Assembly: GCA_964035575.1 (NCBI GenBank)
Contig: OZ037836.1
Span: 930,001 to 994,000, forward strand
Reading direction: 5' to 3'
Length of the DNA: 64,000 bases
Source: Rhynchopus sp. YZ270_cl-10
Taxonomy: Eukaryota
Part shown: positions 4,454 to 28,260 of the stretch, in pieces
How the letters are laid out: each line of letters begins with the position of its first letter
Position numbering within the stretch: position 1 is the stretch's first letter
The notes under the pieces: model-generated
Databases searched by the model: none
What the model saw: only the letters and a program-made list of their open reading frames with translations
What the model was told of the DNA's origin: nothing
Position numbers and translations under genes: made by a program

Positions 4454-4581
4454 GTCTTTGTTGTGGTTTTGTGTTCTGATCTCTGTGTGTGGTGGTGGGG
4501 TGTGGAGGACAACAAGCCTGCAGTCCTTTTCAAGAACCTTGCCAAACTAAACTGTAGGAAGAAAGGCCCCTCTCTCCCCGA

Positions 4582-5160: not shown

Positions 5161-5547
5161 CGTGGAGGAATAGTCCCGTGGAGGACAACAAGACTGACAA
5201 CGATTTCAGGGGTGATGAAGTACAGATAAAAGGGCGGGGAAGTACGCTTGTAATTGAATAAGACATTGTATTATTGTGGGGATATCTTTTGCAGCGTAAA
5301 AATAACACACTGTGTGGAACGTCTTGCTCAGCACAGCTCTCTCCTCATGCCCAGACACCATCAAAAGAGAAGGCTGTGGGGAAAAGAAAAGGGCTCACTG
5401 GAAATACTTGCCACTCAAAACGCGTACTCAGTATTGACGACCGCAAAGACTGATCTCCTCTGTGCACTCTTCATTCCGAGCCACGATGTAGCTTCTGCGC
5501 GCCTCCATGAGCCTCTCCCTGTTCCCTGCCACCAACACACCACGTCG

Positions 5548-6612
5548 TCATTGTGCGTGTGTCTGTTGCTTCTGGATTTGCTCGGGGGATTCGTCTCTGC
5601 TTCGTTTCGGACGTGCTTCAACCACAAGCTTACTCAGCTCGCCGTTCCTCACTTCGTTGGACACAACACTGCTGCAGCCGGAAAGGTAAATGCTCGTCAA
5701 CGAAGTGCAGTTCGCAGCAAATTGCGTAGCATTCGTCAAAATAAATAAACTAATTGACGTCACATTGCTAAGTGGTGATAAATCGATGGTAGTTAAGCTC
5801 TGGCATCCGGTAAGAAAGTTGTGATCAATCTGCGTCACGTTGTTGAGGGGTGATAAATCCAGGCTCGATAAGTTCTTGCAGTGCGCAAGGAACCACGCAC
5901 CAACCTGCGTCACGTTGGTGAGTGGAGATAAATCGATGCTCGTTAAGCTCGTGCACATGGAAAGAAAGCTGTCATCAATCCGTGTCACGTTGCTGAGTGC
6001 TGATAAATCGATGGTGGTTAAGCTGATACAGCAGAAAAGAAACCTGTCCTCAACCTTCGTCACGTTGCTGAGTGGAGATAAATCCAGGGCCGTTAAGCTT
6101 TTGCAGTTCGCAAGGAAGCTCACACCAACCTGCGTCACTTTGCTCAACCCAGAGAGGTCGATACTTGTCAACGAGGTGCAGTCTGCCAGGAAGCCGTCTC
6201 CAATGCGAGTCACAATGGACTCAGCACTGAGATCAAGTCTCGTCAACGAAGTGCGTGCCAAGAAGTCATTCGGAATGAAAGTCGCAACCTCCGCCTGCAG
6301 AAGCAAACACGCCACCTCAGGATCCTCCACACTCTCCAACTTCTCGGCTGTGATGTCTGTCTCACCCAACGCATGAAGCTCTGCAATGGCTTCGTACTTC
6401 TGCGTTTTTGTGAGGATGATTGTGTCACCAGCACTCAGCTGCGTCATGTCCGCTCCTTCTCCCATCGCTTCGTCTCCGAAACTCATGCAAAAGCCGTCTT
6501 CTGGCAACCCCACTGCAGACGCCACCTTCCGCCGCAAGCCCTCCACTGTGTCATCTTCACCCACCTCGACTGTGTGCTGATTCGTGTCGAAACCCTTGAT
6601 GTTCAGGTCCAT
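5548..6612 (-). CDS. Ubl + BspA-type LRR protein, family A (354 aa)
   Basis: Intact paralog of 1500-2489, one 25-aa repeat longer. Confidence 0.85.
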   Translation of the reverse strand: MDLNIKGFDTNQHTVEVGEDDTVEGLRRKVASAVGLPEDGFCMSFGDEAMGEGADMTQLSAGDTIILTKTQKYEAIAELHALGETDITAEKLESVEDPEVACLLLQAEVATFIPNDFLARTSLTRLDLSAESIVTRIGDGFLADCTSLTSIDLSGLSKVTQVGVSFLANCKSLTALDLSPLSNVTKVEDRFLFCCISLTTIDLSALSNVTRIDDSFLSMCTSLTSIDLSPLTNVTQVGAWFLAHCKNLSSLDLSPLNNVTQIDHNFLTGCQSLTTIDLSPLSNVTSISLFILTNATQFAANCTSLTSIYLSGCSSVVSNEVRNGELSKLVVEARPKRSRDESPEQIQKQQTHAQ

Positions 6613-7182
6613 GTCTTTGTTGTGGTTTTGTGTTCTGATCTCTGTGTGTGGTGGTGGGGTGTGGAGGACAACAAGCCTGCAGTCCTTTTCAAGAACCTTG
6701 CCAAAAACTGTCTGGAGAAGGGCCCCTCTCTCCCGACCCACAACCCACAACCCCCGACTTCAGATCTCTCACCTCTCCACCCCCTCTCCCTGAACCAGCG
6801 CCCTTCACAGACGTTCCCTCCTCACGAAAGCAAACCCACCTTCCCCTGCCCCTCTCACGCACCTTTACCTGCCCCGTTCTGCACAAGAAACCCGCAGGAC
6901 CTGGTCTGATGCGCTCAGTGTTTGCTCGAGGCACCCTGAAGAGCGTCTTGTGAAGGAGGATGCCCAGGACCAATAATGAGGACCCTGAGGACGTTTAGCA
7001 CCCTAAGGACCAATTGGAAAAAAAAGGGGGGTTGGGCGGTACGTTGTTATGAATAAGACAATGGGTTTTTTGTGAGGATTCTTTTGCAGCACGGCGTACT
7101 GCCAGACACACTGTATCATATGGTGTGTACCAACACAGCCCTTTGTGCAACCCTTCCCCCTATCCCCTTCCACTTCTACGTT

Positions 7183-9942: not shown

Positions 9943-10530
9943 GAAAAGCTTCGTTGTATTAGTGTGGACACCCGAGGAGTGTGCTCCACTGTGTTCTCCT
10001 TTTCAACGTGGCCACCATCGTTTTCGTTGGCTTCACATCAGTTTTGCATTTTCATGACTTTTCAGTTTCTCTATCTTCTGCGATATGACGCGCAAACACG
10101 CCGTTTTCAATTTGATTCGCAGACCGATACTGACTCACGAAGTTGCTGTGTCAAAAAACACTTTCCTCTGCGAGGCGGGGTACCACAGCGACAACGTCTA
10201 TCACTCATGCGCCTATGAGTCGCTCAATGGCGTCATGGCTTTTATCATGACTGCAGGGGTCCAACCCTGCACATTGCTCTCACAACACAAAATACAAATA
10301 TGCACACAAATGAAGAGATGAAAGATACCTTACAATAAGACAACAAACACCGGTGGGGTAAAAACTAAGAAGGGGTTTAATCCCACCGATATTTGTCTTA
10401 CTGTATTTCATTTGACGTGCACAGGAAAACAATACCATTTTTTTTACCCCAAACCACCCGAGGGAGAGCTGCAAAAGTCAGGCCTAATGCTAACTTTGGG
10501 GGAGGGGGAAAAAAAGTGAACCAGCGAAAA
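9880..10530. repeat. Orphan copy of the family-B LRR upstream region
   Basis: Near-identical to about 35090-35790 and to the corresponding regions near 40790, 51430 and 53560. Confidence 0.85.
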
Positions 10531-11021
10531 AAATGCTCGAGAGACTCGTTCCTCTTTGCTTGTTGCTCAAAAGACTATAAACGGGGGGGAAAAAAGTAAA
10601 AGTTGTTTGTTGTTCGCTTCCACACCACTTCTGCACTCAGATTCAAGTCTTTTGGCTGTCCTTACAAGCGCCTGCCAAAACGCTCGCCTCGTGGGTGTGG
10701 ACTTTTTTTTTTTTTTTTCTTCGACTTGATTTACGATATGGTTGTGTTTGCCTGAAGTACAGAAAGTGTCGTGGAGCACAGGGGGGAAAAGAAGGGGAAA
10801 CAAGCGGGGAGCGGGATACGCAGACGCGCGACTTTTCACGAGGGTCTCGAGCATTTTGTCAAATACTACGTGTTTACTAAAAATGCTCGAGAGACTCGTT
10901 CCTCTTTGCTTGTTGCTCAAAAGACTATAAACGGGGGGGAAAAAAGTAAAAGTTGTTTGTTGTTCGCTTCCACTCCGAACCCTTTTGCCATGAAGGGGAC
11001 GCAGCGCGACGTAAAGCTGTA

Positions 11022-13694
11022 TTAGAATACCCTATCACAATCGTTCACACACAGCAACACTACATCTTCCACAGCAGCCTTCTTCCCTCGGGTGAAAACG
11101 TCGGCCTTTTGCTCTTCGGAAGGTACCCAGGAGCAGGAGATTTGGAGGTGACGAGCCTCTGCAGTCTCGAACAGGCTCTGCAGAATGCGGTTCGCACGGT
11201 ACTTCGTCGAGTGACCGTTGACGATGCATTTCACCGCGGGAAGGTTGTCCACGAACAGGTGTAGCTTCACGTTGGACGTCAGGGATGCTGCCAAGGCCAC
11301 CGCCTGGTGTGCGGCGTACAGCTCCTTGTAGAAAATATGTTGAGGTGACCATGCACTGTTGAATATGCCTTGCGCTACTTTCATAAAGTCACCCTCGACC
11401 AACGCTGCCCATTCGCGGGAGGACGCATCTGACCACGCTGTCACACGGGGCACATTCGGCTGTGGGTAAATCCAGTTGTTCACGTTCATCAGTGCGGTTC
11501 TCTCAATGGTTTCTGTTCGTGTCGACGGGCGAAGCGGTACGGGTAAGTCCCAGTTGAGGATGTCGGTAGCAGTGAAAGCTGCAAGTTCAGCTATGAAGGA
11601 GAGAGAGGCGGCTAAAAAACAGAGGCGTCTGTTGGTAGTGTAACAATGCCACACAATGGATCCAAAAACTGTGAAGAACTCTCGTGGGGTGATCTGTGCC
11701 GTATGGAGCCTTTCGCATTCCTCCTTTTTTGAAAATTTTTCGAGCCATTTTGGATCTGATTTGTAACGTTGATGTGTAAGGTCGAAAGCAAGCCCAAGGG
11801 TGGTGAACTTTTGTGTGGCAACCCCGTATACCTCCCCGTCCGCGTGCATGGTTGCGTTCACGTAAGCGCATCGGTTCAGAAATTTCTTGTAGTTTTCTTC
11901 CACTCCCTCACGTGTTTGGGACAGTAAGATGAAGTTGTCGACCCATGTAACACCCTCCTCGTCAGGTAGAAGCGTGCGCGCAGTCCTCTGTGCCAAACAT
12001 GGGGCGAACGACCAGCCCATGCATAAAACCTTTAACCACGCATGGACAAAATCGCCACGAGCATTCCCCACATTTATGCCGAAAAACGGCCGTATGTCGC
12101 TGTGGAGTGGGAACTGGTAAAACCAGCTTTGTCCGTCAGTGAGGATGGTCCATCTCTGTATCAGAATTCTGCTGATCACGTCAGTAATGAGTGGTAGTCG
12201 CATTTGGGGAGGTCGCACCATGAGGTCGTTGAGCTTTCTCCCATCCATGACGAATCTCAAACCCCCGGATGATTTTTTGACTGTGAAACCGTGCATCACT
12301 ACAGACTGGGGACCGGATGCCTTTTCTAGGACGTCGTATTTTTGCAGGTCTTCAAAATGGGAGCCCATGTGTCGTGATATGCGGTTTTTGAGACGTGGGT
12401 CGGCTGTAAGTTTGGAGAGGGCATCTTCTCTGAAGACTTTGCAGAAGACAGTTTTTGTGGAGATAATGTCTAACAAGTTGTATGGTTCTCCTGCTTCACC
12501 CCTTAATTCGCCCCTTATGTCAATCTCTTTGAGCTTTTGGATGTCGATTCGGGTCGTGCATATGGGAGCAATCCTGTCAGAGCCTGGGGATCGTGTCTTC
12601 GATGTGGGGTTCCTGATGGTACGGTCTCTGAAGTGGACAGCAATAGCTTCATCGTATAGCATTTGCAGAGGACCGAATTCTTCACCTTCAGGGGAGGAGG
12701 ACGGGAGTTGTACATCTGGAACATCTTTGTTTATATCATGGATCGGTGGAGGGGTCAGGGCTGTGTCATAGTTGGAGAAAAGCGATGGGCCAAACTGTTT
12801 TTGGGGGAAACATTTCTGGACGTTCAGTCGTCTAATTTTATGCGTAGGGCCTGTGACAGTGATGCTGTGTCTGCAACTCTCCTTATCCCCGCCGCCGGCA
12901 GGTATCGCAGCAACCCCTCTATGGTTTTGTGTCTGGACACCTTTTGTATTTCCTCCAACGGCATTCCTTCCTTCAGGAGTTGGTAGCACGCTCCTCGCCT
13001 CAACGAGTGCGGGGTGAGGGTGGGGTTCACTTTCTTTAGTGCGGTATTGATGTGTTGGAACGTCACGTCTTTGAAGATGAGTGTGTCTCGTGACCTCTTC
13101 GCCGTCTTGAGGAGCTTCTTTAGGGTGAGAAAAGAGGAGTGTTCGATGTTCAGACCTGTCTGTTGGCCGATACGGAAAGGATCGGATTTCGTGGTTACCC
13201 AGTTCACGCTGGTGACTCCGTCCTCTCGGGTCACCACCTCCTCCGCACGCAGCCGCAGCACATCCGATGCCCTTGCCGCACCCAGCCAGCACATGCTGAT
13301 TGCCAGCTTCAGCACGGGGGAGGGAGTCTGGCGGAGTGTCTCCTCTACCTCCTCTGGGCATGCCGGTACTGCCTGCTGTTTCGGCTTCAACGCCCCCAAT
13401 CTCTTCAATGCCCCCCGGTAATCCTCCAACAGCATTGAGAATGCCATTTTGTGGTAGGCCATTCGTTGCAATGCGGAGACGATGTCGTAGGAGTACTGAA
13501 GGGCGCTGCTGTTGGCGATGCAGTCCATCTCTCGCAAGCGCTCGACCCACAGCACAATGGCCAGATCCATCTCCAGGGGGTTTCCGGTGCAGGCCTCCCA
13601 CTTCTGCTTGAACTCCAGAAACCTCCGGAACAGGTACGACAGGTTCTGCCATCTGTCTCTCGAGAGGGATTTCTTCAGGGTGTCCTTCACGCAA
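11022..13694 (-). CDS. Reverse transcriptase + RNase H (DIRS-order type); the N-terminal third overlaps the YR gene and is probably not translated
   Basis: LRFVMDGRKLN, DGQSWFYQF, LCMGWSFAP, WVDN (YxDD-position variant); RNase H motifs WSDAS, HIFYKELYA, VDN, QKADVFTR. Confidence 0.9.
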   Translation of the reverse strand: MREGHPEEIPLERQMAEPVVPVPEVSGVQAEVGGLHRKPPGDGSGHCAVGRALARDGLHRQQQRPSVLLRHRLRIATNGLPQNGILNAVGGLPGGIEEIGGVEAETAGSTGMPRGGRGDTPPDSLPRAEAGNQHVLAGCGKGIGCAAAACGGGGDPRGRSHQRELGNHEIRSFPYRPTDRSEHRTLLFSHPKEAPQDGEEVTRHTHLQRRDVPTHQYRTKESEPHPHPALVEARSVLPTPEGRNAVGGNTKGVQTQNHRGVAAIPAGGGDKESCRHSITVTGPTHKIRRLNVQKCFPQKQFGPSLFSNYDTALTPPPIHDINKDVPDVQLPSSSPEGEEFGPLQMLYDEAIAVHFRDRTIRNPTSKTRSPGSDRIAPICTTRIDIQKLKEIDIRGELRGEAGEPYNLLDIISTKTVFCKVFREDALSKLTADPRLKNRISRHMGSHFEDLQKYDVLEKASGPQSVVMHGFTVKKSSGGLRFVMDGRKLNDLMVRPPQMRLPLITDVISRILIQRWTILTDGQSWFYQFPLHSDIRPFFGINVGNARGDFVHAWLKVLCMGWSFAPCLAQRTARTLLPDEEGVTWVDNFILLSQTREGVEENYKKFLNRCAYVNATMHADGEVYGVATQKFTTLGLAFDLTHQRYKSDPKWLEKFSKKEECERLHTAQITPREFFTVFGSIVWHCYTTNRRLCFLAASLSFIAELAAFTATDILNWDLPVPLRPSTRTETIERTALMNVNNWIYPQPNVPRVTAWSDASSREWAALVEGDFMKVAQGIFNSAWSPQHIFYKELYAAHQAVALAASLTSNVKLHLFVDNLPAVKCIVNGHSTKYRANRILQSLFETAEARHLQISCSWVPSEEQKADVFTRGKKAAVEDVVLLCVNDCDRVF

Positions 13695-13777
13695 GACATC
13701 AGTGCGGCTCTTTGGGGTTGGGACAAAATTGGTTCGACTTTCAGTGGGCGGCCTCGTTTTTTCGGTTTGGGGTTCAA
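12824..13777 (-). CDS. Tyrosine recombinase
   Basis: Catalytic R..K..HxxR..H..Y pattern: GAARASD, TTKSD, HSLRRG, SRHKT, LLRY; first ATG at about 13699. Confidence 0.92.
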   Translation of the reverse strand: MNPKPKKRGRPLKVEPILSQPQRAALMSCVKDTLKKSLSRDRWQNLSYLFRRFLEFKQKWEACTGNPLEMDLAIVLWVERLREMDCIANSSALQYSYDIVSALQRMAYHKMAFSMLLEDYRGALKRLGALKPKQQAVPACPEEVEETLRQTPSPVLKLAISMCWLGAARASDVLRLRAEEVVTREDGVTSVNWVTTKSDPFRIGQQTGLNIEHSSFLTLKKLLKTAKRSRDTLIFKDVTFQHINTALKKVNPTLTPHSLRRGACYQLLKEGMPLEEIQKVSRHKTIEGLLRYLPAAGIRRVADTASLSQALRIKLDD

Positions 13778-13852
13778 AAGGTTTGGAAAGAGTGTGTGTA
13801 GGGGGGAAAAAACAGAAAGAGGGGTGGTTTGAGTTGACTCGAGGGGGTGGAG

Positions 13853-14917
13853 TCAGTTCCCCCCCTTTCCCGCCTTATCGTTCTTGGACCCCTCACGGTT
13901 TGCATCACGGTTGTATTCGCGGTTTGTGTCTCTCTGGCGGTCCCGGTCTTCTCTGTATCCACCCCTGTCTCGCGAGTCCCATCCTTTCCCCTTTTTGCCT
14001 CCGGAAGACTTAGAGGCGCGGTGGGCATCGTCGCGGGTCTTCCTCTTTTTGTCGAAAGCTTCTTTCCCCTTTGCCTTCATTTCTTCGAGGAGTCGCTTCA
14101 TGATGTGTGGTTCAAATTTTTCGACCTTTTGCGCTTTCGCCTTCACCTCGTACTCGAATCTCACTTCCTTTCCGTAGACTCCCAGGTGAATGAGAGAAGT
14201 GAGCTCCACAACGGTGGTATGGAGAAGATTAATAGTGGGTGGATGAGAGGTCTTGTCATCAGTCAGTGTGTCTATCGTCAAGAGTAGGCTGTCGATTTTC
14301 CGTGCTCGATCGATCTCGTAATCTGGGGCATCACTTAACTCTGCAGGTATCGTCGCCGTTTTAAAATGGGCGCGTACCGCATCCTTTACCAGCAGTCTCA
14401 TCTTCTTATCCTCCAACTTTGTCCATGTGCACACCACGTCAGCTGCAAAGTTTAAAGGGAGGGTTAGGTCGATTCGTTGTTCCAGAGCGTCTATCCTGGC
14501 TGACATCTCGTCCAGCTTGTTCATGATTGCTTGGAAAGAGTGTTGCGAGGTGGTGTCTGTGTCTGTAACGGCGTTGTTTCCTGCGTTGGTCTCCTCCTCG
14601 GACGATGCGTCGTCAGGGTCAATTTCCTGTGTGGGTGGGGTGGGGGTGACGTGTTTCCTCCAACAACACTCCGGGCATCGGAATGTGTCGGCGGTGAAGT
14701 TATCTAGCACCACCTGCCTGATATGTGCCGGAACGCACTTCTTCAGGCAGGTCACCGACGACGCCTTCCCACAATCTCTGCATCGTGCCCCCGCATGTTG
14801 CTGCGTGCAGGTGCCAAAGCTGCATCCTGGGGCATCGTCTGCGCGGGGATCGTCCGCCTCCACCGACAAAGGGATCGCGTCCCAGTCCACCGAGTCAATG
14901 CCGGGGTAGTCGGACAT
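13853..14917 (-). CDS. Gag-like ORF1 with a Cys/His zinc-finger region and coiled coil
   Basis: First ORF of the element; CSFGTC..H...CRDC...C...C...CPEC; basic RG-rich tail. Confidence 0.75.
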   Translation of the reverse strand: MSDYPGIDSVDWDAIPLSVEADDPRADDAPGCSFGTCTQQHAGARCRDCGKASSVTCLKKCVPAHIRQVVLDNFTADTFRCPECCWRKHVTPTPPTQEIDPDDASSEEETNAGNNAVTDTDTTSQHSFQAIMNKLDEMSARIDALEQRIDLTLPLNFAADVVCTWTKLEDKKMRLLVKDAVRAHFKTATIPAELSDAPDYEIDRARKIDSLLLTIDTLTDDKTSHPPTINLLHTTVVELTSLIHLGVYGKEVRFEYEVKAKAQKVEKFEPHIMKRLLEEMKAKGKEAFDKKRKTRDDAHRASKSSGGKKGKGWDSRDRGGYREDRDRQRDTNREYNRDANREGSKNDKAGKGGN

Positions 14918-14965
14918 TTGGATTAGGGTTTTTTTTTTTTTTTTTTTTTAGATAGGATTCGTTCT

Positions 14966-15150
14966 GGCTCTCAGGCCGGTTTTTTTGTTTTGTTGATGGT
15001 TTTCGATTCTAGCTCTCCGGCCGGTTTTTGCTGATGGTTTTCGGTTTTTGCTGATGGTTTTCGATTCTGGCTCTCAGGCCGGTTTTTGCTGATGGTTTTC
15101 GATTTCTAGCTCTCAGGCCGGTTTTGCTGATGGTTTTCGATTTCTAGCTC
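14966..15150. repeat. ~35-bp tandem repeats in the retroelement 5' UTR
   Basis: Repeated ctctcaggccggtttttgctgatggttttcgattct. Confidence 0.8.
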
Positions 15151-16940
15151 TTCGTTCTAGGCTGGACGGTCGGATTCGTTGATAGGTTCGTCTAGCCGGA
15201 TAGTTTGTTGTTTTTTTTTTTTTTTTTTTCTTCGACTTGATTTACGATATGGTTTTGTGTTTGCCAATGAAGTACAGAAAGTGTCGTGGAGCACAGGGGG
15301 GAAAAGAGGGGGAAACAAGCGGGGAGCGGGATACGCAGACGCGCGACTTTTCACGAGGGTCTCGAGCATTTTGTCAAATACTACGTGTTTACTAAAAAAA
15401 AAAAAAAGAGCGAAAAAAAAATTTTCCCTCCGGGAAGGCAGGCCTTTTTCTAAATCCGGTCCCCGTCCCCAGATTTGGAAAAATAAATTTTTTTCCCGCA
15501 CTTTTTTTCCCGCCGTCTCTACTGCGTTTTAGGGGTTCACAGGGGCTCAGAGGAGCCCGATAAAAAATACCACGTGTCTGGATGAGACCGCTCGTGCAAA
15601 ATAACCAGTTTTCGGGGAGGGAAAAAAAAGGGGGAGGGGTGCCGAATCCAGAACACCCCCCCACCAAGTCCCCCCCGTGTGGTTGAACGGGAGTACCTTG
15701 GGGAAATGGGTTGCTGACCGCACCATGAAATCCCGCACCATCCAGGCTGTACCTCAAATATTTTTTTGCCTGCGGCGCTATTATTCATTTTTTGCTCCGC
15801 AACAAAGGGTTCGTTGAGTGACTCTGTGGTGTAAAAAGCTAGATTTTTACACCGTGCCCTAAATTTTTTTTGCCTGCGGCGCCATTTTTTCTTTATTTTT
15901 TTTGCACCGCAAAAAAAAATACAGTCCCTCTGTCCCCAATGTCTTCCCTGGTCAGCAGCGCCGAAAATTATCTCATGGACCACACTTCGCTGAGGCGGTG
16001 TACGAACCAATGGTTCATTTTCTTTCAAGTCTGCCTCAACGACACATTTCGGAGGATTACTGCAGCCCTGGCCAACCTGGAGCCCTCCATCACCCTCGTC
16101 GAGGCACAAGTACCCCCTCCGCCATTCTTCCACACTATCCGTGAGGACGATTTTACGCTGCGTATGAGCAAGGGGCCAGCCCATATCAGCTTTGTCTAAA
16201 AATCCCTCCACCCATCACCCAAATATGGCCCAGATTGTGTTCAAATGGGTCAAATTTTCACAGCGCTTCCCAAATTTGTCATGGAGGCGGGCGCAAAGCG
16301 CAAAAAAACCCCGAAAAAGGGCACAAAAATCACACAAAAAAGACGCGAAAAGGGCGGGAAAACAAGTAATTGCTATCGGAAAAAAAACCGGGTGTGCTGT
16401 GGAACTCCACTCTGAAAAAAATATAATCTACAACACGCCCAGCATTCTGCTCTTCTGCAGGTATGCTAAAACGCTCTTCGTACGCTGCTGAACCCACTGG
16501 GATGCCTGCATCTGAAACTTTTAAACAGTGCGGCTGTCCTCTTCGTCCAGCACCATCTGCTCGATCGCGTTATTGGACGTAGTCTCGGCAGGCTCGATAA
16601 CCATTCGCTCGGGCGGCCTCGGCATGTTCCAGCTCGTAGTCGTCCACAGGCTCCCACGCATCGTCGTCGTCATCAGAGCAGTGCGGAAGGAACACATAAT
16701 GCACAGACGACAACACGTCGTCGATCGCACCAGGCATCGTCACATCAGCACCTCCAGAAAATCGCCAGGATGCTATGGTGGTTTCGAAAATCGCGCGGAG
16801 TTATCCACAGCACACCCCATTTTTTTTCTTAGCAATTAGTTGTTCTTGTTATTATTGTTTTCCCCACCCTTCCTTCAACCCGATCAGTTCGTATTGTTTT
16901 CGCGAAAACATGAAATTACACATTTCAAGAGAACAAAAAA

Positions 16941-17772
16941 TTAAAAAGGGTTCGCCCCCTCAATGGGACGCCGGAAACCATAATTCCTCAGTGTCAGCCG
17001 CATCATTTCAATGAAACCAAAAAGTGGCTTATTTGCATTTTTGGGCTCCGCCCGTGCAGCGGTGGGGTCATTTCGGAAAATTGGACAATTTTTTGACCAC
17101 TTAAATTTTGAGAAATATGAGCCCGGTTCCTTATACGTGGGGCCCATTTTTGGCCAAAATTTTTCTCAAAATCGACGAAATTAAAATTAGACCCCTTACC
17201 CCCCCCCAGAATCATTTCAATACACTACCTGTATTGGTTGCTGACGCGTGTATACAGGAAGGTTGGGAAAAAGTGGCTTATTTGCATTTTTGGGCTCCGC
17301 CCGTGCAGCGGTGGGGTCATTTCGGAAAATTGGACAATTTTTTGACCACTTAAATTTTGAGAAATATGAGCCCGGTTCCTTATACGTGGGGCCCATTTTT
17401 GGCCAAAATTTTTCTCAAAATCGACGAAATTAAAATTAGACCCCTTACCCCCCCCCAGAATCATTTCAATACACTACCTGTATTGGTTGCTGACGCGTGT
17501 ATACAGGAAGGTTGGGAAAAATTAAAAAGGGTTCGCCCCCTCAATGGGACGCCGGAAACCATAATTCCTCAGTGTCAGCCGCATCATTTCAATGAAACCA
17601 AAAAGTGGCTTATTTGCATTTTTGGGCTCCGCCCGTGCAGCGGTGGGGTCATTTCGGAAAATTGGACAATTTTTTGACCACTTAAATTTTGAGAAATATG
17701 AGCCCGGTTCCTTATACGTGGGGCCCATTTTTGGCCAAAATTTTTCTCAAAATCGACGAAATTAAAATTAGA
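16941..17772. repeat. 250-bp satellite, left part (with an ~80-bp extra module)
   Basis: About 3 units matching those at 26177-28260. Confidence 0.95.
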
Positions 17773-17887
17773 CACGACGGACTAGTTATGACCATGACAG
17801 GTGATTTTACTAGTAAAATGACAGGTGAAAATTTTTGACAGGTGGTACCTGTCATTTTGACAGGTACCACCTGTCAAAATACAGGCA

Positions 17888-18080
17888 CCAGGTACCCAGG
17901 TGCCCAGGTACCCAGGTACCCAGGTACCCAGGTACCCAGGTACCCAGGTACCCAGGTACCCAGGTACCCAGGTACCCAGGTACCCAGGTACCCAGGTACC
18001 CAGGTACCCAGGTACCCAGGTACCCAGGTACCCAGGTACCCAGGTACCCAGGTACCCAGGTACCCAGGTACCCAGGTACC
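17888..18080. repeat. (CCAGGTAC)n 8-bp tandem array in the left subterminal region
   Basis: Near-perfect array. Confidence 0.95.
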
Positions 18081-19388
18081 CCCAATGACATAACGAAGTA
18101 TCGCTTGAAAGTACCGTTCAATAACCTTTCTTGGGTGTGCATGAAGTAGCACACAAGGTATATCAAACGGTAAATCAATCAGATAAACGTTACATCATCG
18201 GAAAATTGTTGGCACCGCCCCCCTGTCTTCGTATTTATTACGTCGACAGGCCAAACAGCGTTGGGCTCAGAAGAAGCAGTGCAAAACACTGGGGATCAAC
18301 ATGAGAACCAACTCCCAACAACACAGGCTACCAAAGTAGCAGGTGGGGTGTTGCGGGTGTTTGGGGTGAAAGAAAATCGATTTTGGTAAGTTCCAGCAGA
18401 AAATTCTTAAGTTTGCACTAGTCGAGAGAGGCTTACCCGCTGCAGTGAAGCAGTGCACCCATTTAAGGATGGAGAAGCGTGACACGCACATACAAGTATG
18501 TACGTTACTTCAACAAAGGCTGAATTCTGGTAATTCTAAGGGATGTGAATTCAGCCACCACGCAGGTAGTGTTTTAAGGTTCCTCGCTTTGTTCTGCACA
18601 GCGGCCTTATGATACAAAGGAGTTGCCCCCGCTCTCTTTCGCGCAAACTTAAGAAAATTCTGAAGTAACTACAACCTGGCGTGCGGGTACAGATGCATTG
18701 CTTTGTTCTTTCCTCAAAGTCATGTGTGATCTCTCGGGTCTGTACTAAAGTCAGTGTTTAGATAAGCATCCACTTGACTCGTTCTAACAACCGTTGAAAT
18801 CTAGAACAAAACAACACACTGCCCCTTCTCACACCAAGCCGCCATGCTTCAAGAGCATGCCCTGGGCAAAAATTACTGTGACAAAAACTGGTTTCTGGGG
18901 GAACGCAATATTTTCTTGTGTCTAGTCCTCCGCAAGCAGAGGACAGACTTTCCGGATCCCGAAGTCGAATTTCTTGCACTAGCTATGCTCCCTGGGTTAA
19001 TGGCTATAGCAGTGACTGACAAGAGTTTCCCACCCCCAGATGAAGAAAGAACCGACGCAGAGTTGTGGCTTCTTCATAGTTTTTTCTGCATTTTATAAGT
19101 TCATCCTGTGAGGGAGGGTGTTTTTGGAGGTGTGATGGGAAGAGGAAAAGAAAAAGCAAGAAGAAGAGATATTACTTTTTTGGTGTCGCTACTAGTAAAT
19201 GACAGGTGTAAAGTATGACAGGTGGAAACCTGCCATGTCACAGGAAATGCTGTGTGTGTGTGTGTAACAAAATGAACGACCTCACCGACCCGCATAAAAT
19301 AAAACTTATAAGAACAAAACCCAAGAAACAAACAAAAAAAAAAAAAAAAAGAGAGAAAACAAACAAGAGCAAACACTCTCAAAAGAAA

Positions 19389-19690
19389 TGCTCGAGACTC
19401 GTTCCTCTTTGCTTGTTGCTCAAAAGACTATTAACGGGGGGGGGGGGGGGAAAGTAAAGATTGTTTGTTGTTCGCTTCCACACCACTTCTGCACTCAGAT
19501 TCAAGTCTTTTGGCTGTCCTTACAAGCGCCTGCCAAAACGCTCGCCTCGTGGGTGTGGACTTTTTTCTTTTTCTTTTTCCCTTTTTTTTCTTCGACTTGA
19601 TTTACGGTATGGTTGTGTTTGACTGAAGTACAGAAAGTGTCGTGGAGCACAGGGAAGAAAAGAGAGAGAGGGAAAACCGGGGAGCGGGAG
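19389..19690 (-). mobile_element. Solo terminal fragment of the YR retrotransposon (SIRE-like)
   Basis: Matches 10534-~10815 (repeat B, spacer, part of A) with some divergence. Confidence 0.85.
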
Positions 19691-19720
19691 AGGGGAAAAC
19701 CCGCAAACCTTAGATTTAAA

Positions 19721-21547
19721 TTAACTATGAGCAGATTTCATGTGCGAGTCTCTTGCTCTAGCATTTGAGAAACGTGTTGCGCACAACGGGCAGGTTTTTT
19801 TATCCAAATTCTCAGCGTGCGCATGCAACAGGTGTTGGCTTAGCCCCGCAGTTTCCCTCAAACAAAACGGGCACTTCATGATAGGTGCACGATGTTTGCC
19901 ATCGTAATGGGCAAATAATCCAACTGAAGATTCGAATCCGGTGTTGCAGATAATGCAAGTATGGTCACCATTTTCATCATCTTTTTTTTTATCCTCGCAC
20001 ACATTTTCGACATTTTCGTCATCACTGTTGACTCCAGGCTCCTCATTGCACACACAAATGAGTAAAGTTTCCCCAGCTTTATCTTTTTTATCCCATACGT
20101 ATTTTTGCCCCTCCGCCCCTTTGTTGCAAGTATGCCGCTTCATACCCAGGTTTTTGACACGAGTTCTCAAACTAGTGAAGGCGTCTGTCCAGACAGCGTC
20201 TTTCTCGGTGATGCAGGTATGAAAATGAAAAGTGTTATAGTTATATAATACAGGCAATTTTTTTCTGTCGACTGGGCCAAGTTCAGGCAGGTCGCGTTTG
20301 CAATTTTGCTCAACCAAATGCTTCTTGCTCAGTTCAAATGCCAGCAAGTCACGTTCCATGGTCTGGACAGATGTACACACAGTCCATCTCTTGCGTTCCC
20401 CATTGCACTGTTCGAAAGCCTCATCTGAGAGACATATCCGATGTGCATCCTCCACGTCAAACCAGTGCTCAAGGCTATGAGCGTATGACGACCTGGTGAC
20501 GCCTGCTTTGAAAAATTCAAGCAAAAATATGAGGGTATGGTATGAGAGGAGGGCGTAAAGGAAGTCCTTCTCGTAGGGGTTATCTGTGCCTTCGTGGTAG
20601 TGATACCTGACAGGTATGTCTTGGTACCGGAAAAAAATGAGCACCTGCATACAGCTGCACATTATTTCCCGCATGCCAACCGTTTCACGTTCAAGCATGG
20701 TGAGGAGGGTACGTGATTGAGACCCCGTCATGTTCCCATCAGAAGAACCAGTGACTGTTTCTTGTGTGCTTCCTGCGTTGGGGATGGTCTTTATCATCAG
20801 GTTCACCATGCCTTTGCAATCGTGCAACGCAGGGGTTAAGGCATAGCACGGATGCTCAAATCGGTGCGAAATGTAACTGGTGAAGCCGAGCTCATCCATG
20901 CGCTGCAGGCTACACCTCTCACACCGATGAAGCTTCTTCAGTCTGTCATCGATATCAATGGGGCAGAAAGCAGTTCGATGTTTTCCTCCTAAACCCTTAC
21001 ACAGTCTCAGCAACTCTGCATGATCACCTCCAAACCTGAAATGAAGGATAGGGATGCGCAACTTCTTAACGTAGCACCCACGCGACTGTATGGACTTCAA
21101 AGCAACGAGGCCGCAGAACAACCACCACTCGTAAAAGTCGCTTTTGGTTTTGTCCGCGACAGTCAGGAATCTACTCGCCTGAAGCCCACTGGCTAATCCC
21201 ACGGCAGCACGTTGACGACCACTTGCACTTCTGAATGCACTTCGAGGCGTGTATGCGTCAGCAGATAATACGAGGATAGCTGGTGGGGAGTTCACGGTGA
21301 AGGGGAACTTTGCAGTCAGAAAGCACACAGCCTTCTCGATGTTACCAATTAAGCTCGTTGCCTTCTCCTTAAACGGCTCCTCGCGTATCCTCAGCGTCTC
21401 TCTGGATAGACCTACCCTCAAGGATGTGTGCTTGCGGATGAGTGAGCCAATTCGTGACACTGTGGTCATTGATAGGCCCAATTCGAAGCGATATCTGGCG
21501 ATGATATCCGCAATTTTCAGGGCTGTGCCAAGGTGAAGTTCACTCAT
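19721..21547 (-). CDS. Putative DDE transposase (CMC/Transib/RAG1-like core) with three C-terminal C2H2 zinc fingers, 608 aa
   Basis: Lies within TIRs; motifs LSADAY (D97), FGGDHA (D175), PALHDCKG, MTGSQSRTLL, SYAHSLEH, DEAFEQCNG (E379); C2H2 fingers CIIC..H..H, CPFC..H..H, CPLC..H..H. Confidence 0.75.
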   Translation of the reverse strand: MSELHLGTALKIADIIARYRFELGLSMTTVSRIGSLIRKHTSLRVGLSRETLRIREEPFKEKATSLIGNIEKAVCFLTAKFPFTVNSPPAILVLSADAYTPRSAFRSASGRQRAAVGLASGLQASRFLTVADKTKSDFYEWWLFCGLVALKSIQSRGCYVKKLRIPILHFRFGGDHAELLRLCKGLGGKHRTAFCPIDIDDRLKKLHRCERCSLQRMDELGFTSYISHRFEHPCYALTPALHDCKGMVNLMIKTIPNAGSTQETVTGSSDGNMTGSQSRTLLTMLERETVGMREIMCSCMQVLIFFRYQDIPVRYHYHEGTDNPYEKDFLYALLSYHTLIFLLEFFKAGVTRSSYAHSLEHWFDVEDAHRICLSDEAFEQCNGERKRWTVCTSVQTMERDLLAFELSKKHLVEQNCKRDLPELGPVDRKKLPVLYNYNTFHFHTCITEKDAVWTDAFTSLRTRVKNLGMKRHTCNKGAEGQKYVWDKKDKAGETLLICVCNEEPGVNSDDENVENVCEDKKKDDENGDHTCIICNTGFESSVGLFAHYDGKHRAPIMKCPFCLRETAGLSQHLLHAHAENLDKKTCPLCATRFSNARARDSHMKSAHS

Positions 21548-21618
21548 AGTGTGTTTGCAGTTGTGATGTTTCTCTGTGTGATGAATTTATGTCGAGGGAG
21601 GGGTGACCCACTAAACTT

Positions 21619-22652
21619 CATCACAGCTGCAATCACACTATGAGTGAACTTCATCACGGCACAGCCCATATCATCGCCAGATATCGCTTCGAATTGGCTC
21701 ACTCATCCGCAAGCACACATCCTTGAGGGTAGGTCTATCCAGAGAGACGCTGAGGATACGCGAGGAGCCGTTTAAGGAGAAGGCAACGAGCTTAATTGGT
21801 AACATCGAGAAGGCTGTGTGCTTTCTGACTGCAAAGTTCCCCTTCACCGTGAACTCCCCACCAGCTATCCTCGTATTATCTGCTGACGCATACACGCCTC
21901 GAAGTGCATTCAGAAGTGCAAGTGGTCGTCAACGTGCTGAGGGTTAGATTCCTGACTGTCGCGGACAAAACCAAAAGCGACTTTTACGAGTGGTGGTTGT
22001 TCTGCGGCCTCGTTGCTTTGAAGTCCATACAGTCGCGTGGGTGCTACGTTAAGAAGTTGCGCATCCCTATCCTTCATTTCAGGTTTGGAGGTGATCATGC
22101 AGAGTTGCTGAGACTGTGTAAGGGTTTAGGAGGAAAACATCGAACTGCTTTCTGCCCCATTGATATCGATGACAGACTTAACTTCATGATAAAGACCATT
22201 CCCAACGTAGGAAATTTTCGCGCGGAGCGCAAAAAAAAAAAAATTTTCTTTGGAGAAGGCTCGGTTTTCCATTATTGTTACAAAGTGTAGTGATTTAGGA
22301 TCTTTTTTTTCAGGAAAATTCAAAGGATAAACCACTTTTCCGGTGACCCCCCTCCCCCTCCTATACCAAAAAAAGTTTTCCTCCCCGGATTTCGATCGGA
22401 CCCCCCTCCCCCCCTTTTATTGTTATTTTGTAACAATAAATGGAAAAACGAGCCTTCCCTTGCCCTCGGTAACCCCGTAAGCCAAAACCCCGAAACCTGG
22501 AAAAAGGCCTGGAACGGATAAAAAGATTCAAAAATGACGAAGCAATACAATGAAGAGCCTAGAGTCAACAGTGATGACGACGAAAGTATGCGACGCTGAG
22601 AGCAAGAATAATAAAAAGAAGAGACTCTCGCATGAAATCTGACAAGTTTAAT
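21619..22652 (+). pseudogene. Inverted, internally deleted copy of the transposase gene
   Basis: 21619-22212 mirrors 20771-21568 with deletions; 22549-22652 mirrors pieces of 19721-20047; an unrelated insert lies between them. Confidence 0.9.
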
Positions 22653-23034
22653 ACAAACAGCGTGTAAAAAAAAAGAGGGGTGGGACTCTATTTTTTTTCT
22701 TGGGTGAACAATTGGAGGAAGAATTGCGAGGCAATAATATGCAACTTTTATAAAGTAACGCTACAAGTATGTCTGGTTTTTGTGCGCACCCCAATAATGA
22801 AGTGTAACAAAATAAATTTTTTTTTTGTAGTTTCGACAATCACCTGTCCGAGAACGGGTTCTGTACACAATGTTTTATATATATATTTTTTTTGTAGCTA
22901 CCTGCAAAAAAAAAAAAGAAGATGAACCTGAGCCTCTCGGGCTTAACCACCTCGAAATAAAGTGTAAAATGGTGTAAAAAAAAAAAAAAAAGAAAAAAAA
23001 AAAGTTAAAAAGATGACCCTAAGCCCGTACTTAT

Positions 23035-24048
23035 TTAAGTACTTACTTCTGAGAAAGTTCCCGACTTGTCGTCACTCTCCTCGTCATCGTCATCGTCATG
23101 GTCAATGGTATGGTTACTAACCGCTTGAGAAACCATGACATCCTCACTGACTTCTCCAACTTCGCTGCCTTCATCTGCAGAGTCATGGCGGAGGTCATCT
23201 GGAACCTCAGACTCCCATGAGCCACCTCCAACATTTACCTTGGCGGTGGCCACTGCACTGGCGAGAGGAATGTAGACCATGGTATTTCCACCCTTCTCTA
23301 TTACGACTTCTTTACTGAAGTCAATCACGTACGTGTCGGGAACACGATACTTGAAATCGTAAACACCAGGTGTGAAGTTGGTGCTGGGCAATGTTCTTTT
23401 GAACGACATGGTGAAGTCGCTGCCCGAGAGTTTTGCAGAGTCAGGGACGAGCTTCGTGCACCCGCTCTCCACCATGAGCCAGAGACACTTCACTCCATTG
23501 TGCGTAACCCCGCCTTTGTTTGTGCATTCTGGCCAGCTTCTCGTAATCTTTTTAGCTGGTGTCACTGAGGAGGTCTGTAGTTTGGCCTGGTACAACGTGA
23601 GAACTTTCGCCTCATCGAGGTTGCATTTCTGTGCCAAGTTCTTCAGGCTCTTGTACTCCGCCGAATTGCTCTGTCCATTGGTGGGCGTTTGGCGCAGGGT
23701 GAAGCCGCAGAATTCGAGGTCGCTGTTCCCACTCGCTCGGCGGGAATAGTACGTCATGCTGCCGGCGTCTACTGCATTTTTGGCAGTCTTAATTTTGTGA
23801 AGTAAGTTCATCTCAATGCTAATTAAGCCGCTCTCTGATTTCAGATTTATCCCGAAAAGATTGTTCAACATCGCCTTCAACGGCGCATGAAGGAATGATT
23901 TGCCCTCTTTTTTCATCACATATATCTTGAGGAAGTTCTGCACCACATCCCTCACCTTAGATTCCACAGCCGGTTTGGGTTTGGGTTTGTCATCTACGAC
24001 CTTCGATCTTTTGGTAGGCAGGGGCTGTGTCGCTGAGCGTTTTCCCAT
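23035..24048 (-). CDS. Transposon accessory protein of unknown function (basic N-terminus, acidic tail), 337 aa
   Basis: Clean ORF inside the TIRs; NLS-like PTKRSK; weak by-eye resemblance of the C-terminal half to an alpha-crystallin/HSP20 fold. Confidence 0.7.
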   Translation of the reverse strand: MGKRSATQPLPTKRSKVVDDKPKPKPAVESKVRDVVQNFLKIYVMKKEGKSFLHAPLKAMLNNLFGINLKSESGLISIEMNLLHKIKTAKNAVDAGSMTYYSRRASGNSDLEFCGFTLRQTPTNGQSNSAEYKSLKNLAQKCNLDEAKVLTLYQAKLQTSSVTPAKKITRSWPECTNKGGVTHNGVKCLWLMVESGCTKLVPDSAKLSGSDFTMSFKRTLPSTNFTPGVYDFKYRVPDTYVIDFSKEVVIEKGGNTMVYIPLASAVATAKVNVGGGSWESEVPDDLRHDSADEGSEVGEVSEDVMVSQAVSNHTIDHDDDDDEESDDKSGTFSEVST

Positions 24049-24138
24049 TTTTTATATTGTTTTTGTTGGTTAATTCCTGAATTGAGTGTCAGGGGGCGGG
24101 AGGGTAGCTTGAACCATGCACATTAATTAATAATTATA

Positions 24139-25113
24139 ATGCAACCTCGTTCAACCACCCCCCTGACACCCAATTCAGGAACCAACAAAAGCAATATAAA
24201 CTGCCTACCAAAAAAGCGAAGCCCGATGATGCCACAAACCAGCTACTGTGGAATCTAAGGTGACGGATGTGGTGCAGAACTTCCTCAAGATATATGTGGT
24301 GAAAAAAGAGGGTAAAGCATTCCTTCATGCGCCGTTGAAGGCGATGTTGAACAATCTTTTCGGGATAAAGAGAGCGGCTTAATTAACGTTGAGATGAACG
24401 CACAAAATTCACAAAATTAAGACTGCCAAAAATGCAGTAGACGCCGGCAGCATGACGTACTATTCCCGCCGAGCGAGTGGGAACAGCGACCTCGAATTCT
24501 GCGGCTTCACCCGCCCACCAATGGACAGAGCAATTCGGCGGAGTACAAGAGCCTGAAGAACTTGGCAGCAGAGAAATGCAACCTCGATGAGGCGAAAGTT
24601 CTCACGTTGTACCAGGCCAAACTACAGACCTCCTCAGTGACACCAGCTAAAAAGATTACGAGAAGCTGGCCAGAATGCACAAACAAAGGCGAGGTTACGC
24701 ACAATGGAGTGAATCCTGACTCTGCAAAACTCTCGGGCAGCGACTTCACCATGTCGTTCAAAAGAACATTGCCCAGCACCAACTTCACACCTGGTGTTTA
24801 CGATTTCAAGTATCGTGTTCCCGACACGTACGTGATTGACTTCAGTAAAGAAGTCGTAATAGAGAAGGGTGGAAATACCATGGTCTACATTCCTCTCGCC
24901 AGTGCAGTGGCCACCGCCAAGGTAAATGTTGGAGGTGGCTCATGGGAGTCTGAGGTTCCAGATGACCTCCGCCATGACTCTGCAGATGAAGGCAGCGAAG
25001 TTGGAGAAGTCAGTGAGGATGTCATGGTTTCTCAAGCGGTTAGTAACCATACCATTGACCATGACGATGACGATGACGAGGAGAGTGACGACAAGTCGGG
25101 AACTTTATCAGAA
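24139..25113 (+). pseudogene. Inverted copy of the accessory gene, lacking its ATG and carrying small deletions
   Basis: Reverse complement of 23048-24120; 3' half essentially identical. Confidence 0.92.
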
Positions 25114-26176
25114 CCAGAGGCCATGACTTTGGTATTTTTACCCCTTTCTCTCCCCCCCCCCCCCCCCCCCCTCCCAGTACCTGTTAGACACACTTGTAGT
25201 GTTATTTTGTAAAAGTTGTTGTGGTTGCATATAATTATTAATTAATGCCAAAAGATCGGGTGGAGGGGTGGGGGTGAGATGACAGCTAAAAGATCGGGTG
25301 GGGGTCGGTGAGGTCGTTCATTTTTGTTACACACACACACACACACACAGCATTTTATGTGACATGACAGGTGCCACCTTCACGGTGACTACCTCGACGA
25401 CGCACACGCTCCACAACGAGGTCAAACCCGAAAAAGAGAACCTTAGGGCACAGCCAGTACACCTTTCCCTAAGTGTGTAGCATGCAGAACATACATGGGC
25501 TGACATCAAAACCAAAAAAAGAAGCAAATAAAAAACAACATTTTTTGTTTATCTCTCTGCAAGAATTTTTCCCACGGCTATTTGTGTGTACCATCAAAAG
25601 TGCTCGTAAGTGCCTTCATTTCCATTTTTCCCCCAGGATTGAGGACATGTGGGCAATTTGTGATGTCGAAAAAAAAAGTTTTGGTCAAAAAATGGACTTG
25701 TCTTTCGGAAAAAATCGGCTGCGCAAAACCGTGTTTTAGACCCCCACAGATGCTCAAAACTGCCAAATTTTGCTTTTAATGGCCTCAAATCGTCGAAATT
25801 CGCCCTAAAAGGGGGCAAAAAAAAAAATTCGAGAGTCCCTTTCCCTGGGAGGCAATAGCCACCGGCAAAAACACCTGTCATATGACAGGTGGTACCTGTC
25901 AAAATGACAGGTACCACCTGTCAAAATGACAGGTACCACCTGTCATATGACAGGTACCACCTGTCAAAATGACAGGTGGTACCTGTCATCTTACAGGTAC
26001 CACCTGTCATATGACAGGTGGTACTTGTCACCACCTGTCATTTTACAGGTGGTACCTGTCATTTTACAGGTACCACCTGTCATATTACTAGTAATATTCA
26101 ATTATCACCTGTCATATTTATAACTAGTTACACCACCTGTCATATCACCTGTCATGGCCATAACTAGTCCGTCGTG

Positions 26177-28260
26177 GACCCCTTACCCCCCCCCAGAATC
26201 ATTTCAATACACTACCTGTATTGGTTGCTGACGCGTGTATACAGGAAGGTTGGGAAAAAAGTGGCTTATTTGCATTTTTGGGCTCCGCCCGTGCAGCGGT
26301 GGGGTCATTTCGGAAAATTGGACAATTTTTTGACCACTTAAATTTTGAGAAATATGAGCCCGGTTCCTTATACGTGGGGCCCATTTTTGGCCAAAATTTT
26401 TCTCAAAATCGACGAAATTAAAATTAGACCCCTTACCCCCCCCCCAGAATCATTTCAATACACTACCTGTATTGGTTGCTGACGCGTGTATACAGGAAGG
26501 TTGGGAAAAAAGTGGCTTATTTGCATTTTTGGGCTCCGCCCGTGCAGCGGTGGGGTCATTTCGGAAAATTGGACAATTTTTTGACCACTTAAATTTTGAG
26601 AAATATGAGCCCGGTTCCTTATACGTGGGGCCCATTTTTGGCCAAAATTTTTCTCAAAATCGACGAAATTAAAATTAGACCCCTTACCCCCCCCCAGAAT
26701 CATTTCAATACACTACCTGTATTGGTTGCTGACGCGTGTATACAGGAAGGTTGGGAAAAAAGTGGCTTATTTGCATTTTTGGGCTCCGCCCGTGCAGCGG
26801 TGGGGTCATTTCGGAAAATTGGACAATTTTTTGACCACTTAAATTTTGAGAAATATGAGCCCGGTTCCTTATACGTGGGGCCCATTTTTGGCCAAAATTT
26901 TTCTCAAAATCGACGAAATTAAAATTAGACCCCTTACCCCCCCCCCAGAATCATTTCAATACACTACCTGTATTGGTTGCTGACGCGTGTATACAGGAAG
27001 GTTGGGAAAAAAGTGGCTTATTTGCATTTTTGGGCTCCGCCCGTGCAGCGGTGGGGTCATTTCGGAAAATTGGACAATTTTTTGACCACTTAAATTTTGA
27101 GAAATATGAGCCCGGTTCCTTATACGTGGGGCCCATTTTTGGCCAAAATTTTTCTCAAAATCGACGAAATTAAAATTAGACCCCTTACCCCCCCCCAGAA
27201 TCATTTCAATACACTACCTGTATTGGTTGCTGACGCGTGTATACAGGAAGGTTGGGAAAAAAGTGGCTTATTTGCATTTTTGGGCTCCGCCCGTGCAGCG
27301 GTGGGGTCATTTCGGAAAATTGGACAATTTTTTGACCACTTAAATTTTGAGAAATATGAGCCCGGTTCCTTATACGTGGGGCCCATTTTTGGCCAAAATT
27401 TTTCTCAAAATCGACGAAATTAAAATTAGACCCCTTACCCCCCCCCCAGAATCATTTCAATACACTACCTGTATTGGTTGCTGACGCGTGTATACAGGAA
27501 GGTTGGGAAAAAAGTGGCTTATTTGCATTTTTGGGCTCCGCCCGTGCAGCGGTGGGGTCATTTCGGAAAATTGGACAATTTTTTGACCACTTAAATTTTG
27601 AGAAATATGAGCCCGGTTCCTTATACGTGGGGCCCATTTTTGGCCAAAATTTTTCTCAAAATCGACGAAATTAAAATTAGACCCCTTACCCCCCCCCAGA
27701 ATCATTTCAATACACTACCTGTATTGGTTGCTGACGCGTGTATACAGGAAGGTTGGGAAAAAAGTGGCTTATTTGCATTTTTGGGCTCCGCCCGTGCAGC
27801 GGTGGGGTCATTTCGGAAAATTGGACAATTTTTTGACCACTTAAATTTTGAGAAATATGAGCCCGGTTCCTTATACGTGGGGCCCATTTTTGGCCAAAAT
27901 TTTTCTCAAAATCGACGAAATTAAAATTAGACCCCTTACCCCCCCCCAGAATCATTTCAATACACTACCTGTATTGGTTGCTGACGCGTGTATACAGGAA
28001 GGTTGGGAAAAAGTGGCTTATTTGCATTTTTGGGCTCCGCCCGTGCAGCGGTGGGGTCATTTCGGAAAATTGGACAATTTTTTGACCACTTAAATTTTGA
28101 GAAATATGAGCCCGGTTCCTTATACGTGGGGCCCATTTTTGGCCAAAATTTTTCTCAAAATCGACGAAATTAAAATTAGACCCCTTACCCCCCCCCAGAA
28201 TCATTTCAATACACTACCTGTATTGGTTGCTGACGCGTGTATACAGGAAGGTTGGGAAAA
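26177..28260. repeat. 250-bp satellite, right part (~8.3 units)
   Basis: Units differ only in homopolymer lengths. Confidence 0.97.

Follow-up and report, generated by a model that had tools for sequence, protein, structure and literature searches.

In maize, the Mu killer locus carries an inverted duplication of transposase sequence, and the hairpin RNA and small interfering RNAs (siRNAs) made from it silence the transposon family (PMC3440606). Ac killer and composite insertions contain comparable inverted duplications, which are proposed or were shown to silence through hairpin RNA (10.1101/2020.01.07.897926; PMC13635294). A mobile element may also be limited by RNA interference (RNAi) against double-stranded RNA made from its own sequence, as with the read-through fold-back of Tc1 in C. 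elegans and the antisense promoter of LINE-1 (PMC3878927), and in the euglenozoan Trypanosoma brucei small RNAs arise from all seven of the near-identical long inverted repeats (PMC3447711). Here we analyze a DNA transposon in a stretch of 64,000 nucleotides from Rhynchopus sp. YZ270_cl-10 (contig OZ037836.1, positions 930,001 to 994,000 of the forward strand; hereafter the window), in which each of two intact genes faces a damaged, inverted copy of itself. An earlier note, made from the letters of the window, had proposed a built-in hairpin-RNA system for self-silencing, an interpretation that is supported in part by the results below.

Like Mu killer and Ac killer, the element contains transposase sequence duplicated in inverted orientation. 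In those cases a single rearranged locus acts on other elements, whereas here the fold-backs lie inside an element with both open reading frames (ORFs) and both ends intact, number one per gene, and occur on 8 contigs. By analogy the element would work like Mu killer, yet as an intact, repeated element it falls outside that class. The duplexes of Tc1 and LINE-1 derive from terminal repeats or bidirectional promoters, in contrast to the dedicated inverted copy of each coding region found here (PMC3878927), and the accessible account of the T. brucei repeats does not place them within a mobile DNA transposon (PMC3447711). In a literature search whose coverage lacked most subscription journals and Repbase Reports, we came across no DNA transposon that is intact, multi-copy and provided with an inverted copy of every gene; the accessible part of a preprint on Drosophila Transib has no bearing on hairpins (10.64898/2026.08.26.747230).

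Results

Each gene is arranged head-to-head with an inverted copy of itself

Comparison of the window with itself places the transposase gene (gene 1) and the accessory gene (gene 2) each head-to-head with its own inverted, deletion-bearing copy; we refer to these as pair 1 and pair 2. The order and strands of the four parts in the earlier note are correct, as is its spacer of some 50 bp for pair 1, which is exactly that length (Table 1). The A/T-rich core that it had taken as the spacer of pair 2 is present, but lies within an imperfect stem. A search for exact 30-mer fold-backs within 2.5 kb found four sites in the window, namely the two pairs, a short palindrome at 55329 and a further site at 55568.

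Both copies are broken as genes, although the loss of the start codon that had been described applies to copy 2, where a 29-nt deletion has removed the ATG; copy 1 retains its ATG (21640) and reaches a stop after 28 codons. The microhomology reported at one deletion is confirmed, as 8 nt (CGAATTGG) at a 31-nt deletion in copy 1. Beyond its main arm copy 1 continues as remnants, with 31/33 positions matching 20016-20048 and 22/26 matching 19732-19757, the extension to the stop codon being judged by eye. The breaks are confined to the copy arms, as would follow if an element could not spread once its genes were broken. Loop 1 contains a C-rich tract, an AG and an A/C-rich stretch, a context like that upstream of host genes, which makes it a candidate trans-splice acceptor of gene 1; a candidate acceptor AG of gene 2 lies at ~24078. 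The possibility that the deletions are introns is ruled out, as none of those listed has GT-AG ends. Copy 2 holds sequence upstream of the candidate acceptor, which makes it unlikely that the copies arose as retrocopies.

The stems predicted for RNA from the element add up to 525-555 bp in pair 1 and to 813-817 bp in pair 2, counted as perfect stacks of at least 19 bp. The earlier note had attributed its hairpins to minus-strand read-through. The long stems stand, but they are not specific to that strand; both strands fold alike, so that read-through in either direction would yield both hairpins. Perfect 21-mers from the arms cover 514 of the 1,827 nt of gene 1 (codons 14-202) and 780 of the 1,014 nt of gene 2 (codons 33-331).

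Two observations touch the composition of the fold-backs. The ~200-bp segment at 22255-22457 carries two GACCCCCCTCCCC motifs, and a similar G/C motif is found in loop 1 (21596-21612). A GTTGCAT-AT-rich motif bounds gene 2 and its copy at both ends (22733-22745, 24121-24146, 25223-25247), as if short direct repeats had perhaps lain on either side of the gene 2 module before it was folded back.

The same junctions recur on eight contigs

Sibling copies were counted as proteins, by exact look-up in the protein collection. The 608-residue transposase was found exactly on 6 contigs and in broken form on 2 more, and the 337-residue accessory protein exactly on 7 contigs with a one-residue variant on another. 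A chance ORF in copy 1 occurs on 6 + 2 contigs and one in copy 2 on 8, and all four parts are present together on contigs of 2,160,207 and 840,302 bases. Peptides spanning the deletion junctions are common to the copies (3/3 sequences for the copy 1 junctions and 8/8 for the 3' junction of copy 2). Six of the seven other copy 2 ORFs are the same as that of the window up to a poly-C tract, while the seventh is shorter; they vary chiefly in the length of this tract, and variants from the 840-kb contig have further small differences. The 8:8:8:8 counts of the four parts offer no hint of a sibling that lacks the hairpins.

The earlier note had asked whether other copies share the architecture, and allowed that the inversions might come from chimeric reads or be unique to this copy. 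They are shared: the same deletion junctions are found on 8 contigs, which makes it very unlikely that they stem from a chimeric read or from a rearrangement that happened only once. The form that spread is the hairpin-bearing one, which moved as a unit with an exact 2-bp duplication.

Divergence between the arms is concentrated at their ends

We counted mismatches between the arms in aligned blocks of at least 21 nt, excluding shorter blocks as unreliable. There are no mismatches among the 482 core positions of pair 1 and 4 among the 701 of pair 2, whereas the ends are 8-10% diverged (16/166 and 19/238, respectively). The longest mismatch-free run extends over 515 of 648 aligned columns in pair 1 and 392 of 968 in pair 2, and neither was reached in any of 20,000 permutations. 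The clustering of mismatches at the arm ends is non-random, and the near-perfect blocks with divergent ends seen on first inspection are real. Since the ends have diverged while the cores are near-identical, the arms appear to be old yet homogenized. The element copies are themselves nearly identical, from which we infer that both fold-backs predate the recent burst of the element. Perfect cores between diverged ends point to repeated conversion from arm to arm, or to a later refreshing of the sequence; gene conversion in palindromes has been reported on sex chromosomes (PMC7023750).

In pair 1, 8 of the 14 coding mismatches are synonymous, compared with 21-26% at random (p 0.003-0.014). An excess of this kind is as expected if the gene arm evolved under selection beside its copy.

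The element ends lie outside the fold-backs

The element had been placed at 19721 to 25250, but its true ends are further out. It occupies 17773-26176 (8,404 bp), begins with CACGACGG, finishes with CCGTCGTG, and has CAC...GTG termini that match at 32 of the 33 terminal bases. The identification as a DNA transposon with intact ORFs and two fold-back copies is supported. It is inserted in a satellite array of 250-bp units that are 99% identical, which resumes after the element and continues to 28260. Ten uninterrupted units provide the empty site, AAATTAGACCCCTT, whereas the occupied site reads AAATTAGA, then the element, then GACCCCTT; GA has been duplicated, in a single insertion. This insertion is likely recent, because the interrupted satellite units are 99% alike.

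Table 1. Features of the transposon and its insertion site, in window coordinates
Feature	Position	Strand	Remarks
Left target site duplication, GA	17771..17772		Inside a 250-bp satellite unit
Left terminal inverted repeat, starting CACGACGG	17773..17805	+	32/33 positions match the right end
Left subterminal repeats TGACAGGT/ACCTGTCA	17795..17885
8-bp tandem repeat CCAGGTAC, ~24 copies	17888..18081		Found with Tandem Repeats Finder (TRF)
Inner inverted repeat, left arm	19220..19294	+	Pairs with 25299-25379; 84% over 82 nt
Solo terminal-repeat fragment of a tyrosine-recombinase retrotransposon (~10500-15400)	19382..19689		87% over 311 nt to 10527-10816
Transposase ORF (gene 1), intact, 608 amino acids	19721..21547	-	RAG1/Transib fold, from structure model, fold comparison and motifs
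Loop 1, 50-nt spacer with C-rich tract and AG	21569..21618		Similar to sequence upstream of host genes
Inverted copy 1, main arm	21619..22213	+	Two perfect blocks (249 and 233 nt) and four deletions (12, 31, 29 and 135 nt)
Insertion within copy 1, bounded by inverted ends of 30 bp	22255..22457		Ends match at 29/31
Copy 1 remnants, matching the 3' end of the transposase gene	22548..22653	+	Compared with 20048-19721
Accessory ORF (gene 2), intact, 337 amino acids	23035..24048	-	Basic N terminus, acidic C terminus; no family match
Loop 2, imperfect near-palindrome with A/T core 24121-24138	24101..24154		11-nt terminal loop
Inverted copy 2	24155..25113 (start approximate)	+	Near-perfect blocks of 104, 53, 146 and 398 nt; several indels
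Copy 2 tail	25186..25247	+	Matches region downstream of gene 2 (22733-22774) and motif 24121-24146
Inner inverted repeat, right arm	25299..25379	-	Pairs with 19220-19294
Right subterminal repeats ACCTGTCA/TGACAGGT	25872..26154		Period ~22 nt
Right terminal inverted repeat, ending CCGTCGTG	26144..26176	-	32/33 match to the left end
Right target site duplication, GA	26177..26178

We considered the inner inverted repeat as the end of an element and dismissed it; it has no flanking duplication, whereas the outer CAC ends do. The retrotransposon terminal-repeat fragment sits directly downstream of the transposase stop codon. There were no Rfam matches across 17700-26300.

The transposase is predicted to have a RAG1-like fold

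Sequence and profile searches of Pfam and the PDB with the transposase found nothing beyond its C-terminal C2H2 zinc fingers (Pfam matches). For 38 homologues there was no transposase family of Pfam among the 25 of 49 families listed, and the only named homologues are transcripts of the diplonemid Rhynchopus euleeides, with ~40-45% identity, which suggests a diplonemid host. A model built from the 38 homologues had a predicted local distance difference test (pLDDT) score of 92.7, compared with 50.8 and no fold match for an earlier model from 6 sequences. The top Foldseek matches were to RAG1 (E 2.4e-6), and VIA structural comparison with RAG1 gave Z 16.8 with a root-mean-square deviation of 4.4 for 387 aligned residues. 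The corresponding Z values were 14.9 for HzTransib and 13.7 for BbRAG1L, and lower for P-element (12.0) and Hermes (7.0).

D97, D175 and E379 are conserved in the alignments and likely constitute the catalytic triad, as assigned by motif and secondary structure rather than by residue-level superposition. Ahead of the catalytic glutamate there is a conserved H(3-4)H motif, H357-x3-H361. At the C(2)C position after the second aspartate the sequence is T192-x2-C195, and S-x2-C in close homologues; a full C-x2-C is found in 5 of 14 aligned homologues (P0036, P0047, P0048, P0050 and P0054). According to the model, then, the transposase has a DDE core with the RAG1/Transib fold.

Target duplications of Transib elements are 5 bp in length, and subterminal repeats and a second ORF are features of EnSpm/CACTA elements. 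The element has both of the latter. Its ends and its 2-bp duplication agree with the CAC...GTG ends and 2-3 bp duplications of EnSpm/CACTA (PMC6004678, PMC12730594), and CAC...GTG ends together with a duplication of 2 bp are also reported for the CACTA element ENS1_Cis (PMC6004678). The wider CMCT clade comprises EnSpm/CACTA, Mirage, Chapaev, Transib, Plavaka, ESTA, as well as Lanisha, with CA..TG ends and duplications of 2-5 bp (PMC12730594). The element fits this clade in its CA..TG ends, 2-bp duplication (within the range of the clade), RAG1-like fold and H(3-4)H motif; it differs in having T-x2-C for C(2)C and C-terminal C2H2 fingers, and the accessible account of the clade has nothing on internal fold-backs (PMC12730594). 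RAG1/RAG2, ProtoRAG, AanRAGL and HzTransib include the nearest solved folds (Z 13.7-16.8 for RAG1, BbRAG1L and HzTransib), and CAC ends are shared with the element; RAGL elements also have two genes (PMC9435367). On the other side, sequence identity is ~11%, the second protein has no sequence match to RAG2, RAGL genes are in tandem, and the target duplication of AanRAGL is 5 bp (PMC9435367). Because its own duplication is 2 bp instead of 5 bp, the element does not fit Transib or RAGL proper.

The product of gene 2 had no Pfam match, no PDB match below E 0.7 and no usable Atlas match, and a search for homologues recovered only its own copies.

Related families

A young sister transposase family is 44% identical and has 19 members, some of them on the same 2.16-Mb contig. 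A short-protein search for ORFs of inverted copies found only the copy of the family to which the element in the window belongs. One candidate for an inverted copy in the sister family, P0051 (residues 44-200 with foreign flanks), was dismissed as a singleton on one contig. The wider RAG1-fold transposase family in ENA and Logan records, to which the sister family belongs, has 35 representatives at E up to 1e-10, with members P0003, P0010-P0023, P0033, P0097, P0040-P0050 and P0054. Pattern matches in metagenome and viral contigs (85 and 54) included none that encodes a relative. Nine loci matching an 18-nt end motif were attributed to chance, having only 18-19 nt in common and no transposase.

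Other features of the window

An unrelated ~790-bp element at 55269-56057 is bounded by inverted CAGTGTTTTTTCT ends and by a duplication of 5 bp, CGGGG. This element too holds a fold-back, with arms at 55568-55664 and 55672-55768 that are identical at 94 of 97 positions around a 7-nt loop. The folded sequence is a zinc-finger-like coding fragment (weak Pfam match to zf-C17orf113, E 0.075, a domain linked to hAT elements); it may be a hairpin silencer of another transposon family.

A tyrosine-recombinase retrotransposon at 10500-15420 has split direct repeats, and gag-like, integrase and reverse transcriptase ORFs on the minus strand (Pfam matches for the latter two). A LINE-like (long interspersed element) sequence at 42623-50283 contains an endonuclease-reverse transcriptase ORF of 1,588 residues and an upstream ORF of 961 residues with an OTU protease domain, and is apparently inserted in a gene of the ubiquitin and leucine-rich repeat type. 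Tandem protein families of this kind, with a ubiquitin-like N terminus and BspA-type leucine-rich repeats, are found at 1500-6750 and 33200-57366. Several proteins of the second group terminate in CKCVCM, a CaaX-like motif.

Discussion

Does the transposon carry its own brake? We would give even chances to the view that read-through RNA forms hairpins of 0.5-0.8 kb that, likely by RNAi, partially damp both genes. Polycistronic transcription, originating in the host or the element, would cross both loops in either direction, and Dicer would cleave the stems into siRNAs directed against gene 1 and gene 2 that act on every copy. Repression would be partial, because the hairpin form has itself multiplied; loop 1, with its host-like acceptor context, is weakly paired, so that some transposase mRNA could still mature. 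Damage would be tolerated in the copy arm only, and gene conversion between the arms would keep the cores identical. According to theory, self-restraint is favored in clonal hosts, and it would pay in a largely clonal host. In the published genome of the diplonemid D. papillatum, genes lie in unidirectional arrays with spliced-leader trans-splicing, and the organism is apparently haploid (PMC10161547). D. papillatum also has a full set of RNAi genes, with two Dicer-like and three Argonaute genes (PMC10161547).

A fuller interpretation, which we hold tentatively and at a little under even chances, is that of a mobile DNA transposon with an evolved, heritable RNAi self-brake, belonging to an unclassified euglenozoan RAG1-fold lineage with a partner protein. 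There would be one hairpin cassette per gene, able to work in either orientation of insertion in a polycistronic genome, with arms kept matched by conversion and carried to each new copy.

A number of points weigh against an RNAi brake. A promoter inside a loop would give two sense RNAs and no duplex. Conversion alone suffices to explain the perfect cores. The synonymous excess in pair 1 is not significant (p 0.09) when set against the 36% that we estimate for a copy evolving neutrally next to a gene under constraint, and pair 2 has no such excess (3/19). Changes compatible with G-U pairing have no strand bias (11 versus 14, p 0.69), so that the sequence alone gives no sign of selection on RNA pairing, and no compensatory change between the arms was found. 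Protein evidence from the 19 cluster members of the sister family gave no repeated ORF of a truncated copy. The eight contigs are counts in a protein collection, some of which may represent one locus in two assemblies or haplotypes. Finally, the fold-back at 55568-55768 in an unrelated element suggests a genome-wide mutational tendency; the earlier argument that two duplications in one element speak against chance is weakened by it, although both duplications are confirmed.

Several of these points belong equally to the main rival, in which the palindromes are passengers: fold-back accidents that were tolerated, eroded by deletion and homogenized by conversion, leaving expression little affected or causing silencing only as a by-product. 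RAG1-type transposases make hairpin DNA ends, a possible source of such accidents. The clustering of deletions and divergence near the loops is in keeping with a passenger origin, as are the lack of G-U strand bias, the third fold-back and the sister family. We nevertheless consider it less likely than the brake. There are two fold-backs, each centered just upstream of a gene start, and both have been retained through 8-10% divergence and on 8/8 contigs, at a cost of ~2.2 kb and the risk of converting deletions into the ORFs.

The stems might instead act as a brake independently of RNAi, by hiding a trans-splice acceptor or start codon or by holding the pre-mRNA in the nucleus, with less mRNA maturing. 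Folding of the minus strand is indeed predicted to pair the candidate acceptor AG of gene 2, and likewise the ATG of gene 1. Such a brake would however need just the parts of the arms next to the loops, where degradation is greatest, whereas the near-perfect blocks lie hundreds of bases inside the ORFs, and the candidate acceptor of gene 1 is in its loop and only weakly paired. We regard this explanation as improbable.

Still less probable is that the copies are sense products of divergent transcription from the loops, serving as siRNA decoys or encoding truncated repressors, of which the KP protein of the P element is an example. The head-to-head geometry would suit this, and copy 2 keeps a candidate acceptor and a frame open from 24562, with in-frame ATGs from 24751, for the C-terminal part of protein 2. 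The original ATG of that copy is gone, however, and copy 1 soon terminates; moreover, the C terminus of the copy 2 frame shifts with poly-C length across the 8 contigs, suggesting no selection on a protein.

We think it very improbable that the fold-backs are invertible switches, each gene being turned off or on when a crossover between its arms inverts the loop together with the 5' half of the gene. Perfect inverted blocks of 233-398 nt around each start region would permit this, but no flipped form (an intact N terminus with the distal junction of the copy) was present in the 4 + 3 (gene 1, copy 1) or 2 + 8 (gene 2, copy 2) cluster members, although clustering could miss such forms. An artifact of sequencing or assembly from fold-back reads is scarcely credible, given identical junctions on 8 contigs, arm-end substitutions enriched at synonymous sites, an insertion nested within copy 1, and two separate fold-backs in one element.

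Self-restraint by transposons is a long-standing question. The hairpins of this element travel with its intact form, and restraint is thus directly testable; diplonemids can be transformed, and gene replacement is cited for them (PMC10161547). With this element the lineage behind V(D)J recombination also gains a two-gene transposon of RAG1 fold that comes from a euglenozoan and has a 2-bp duplication.

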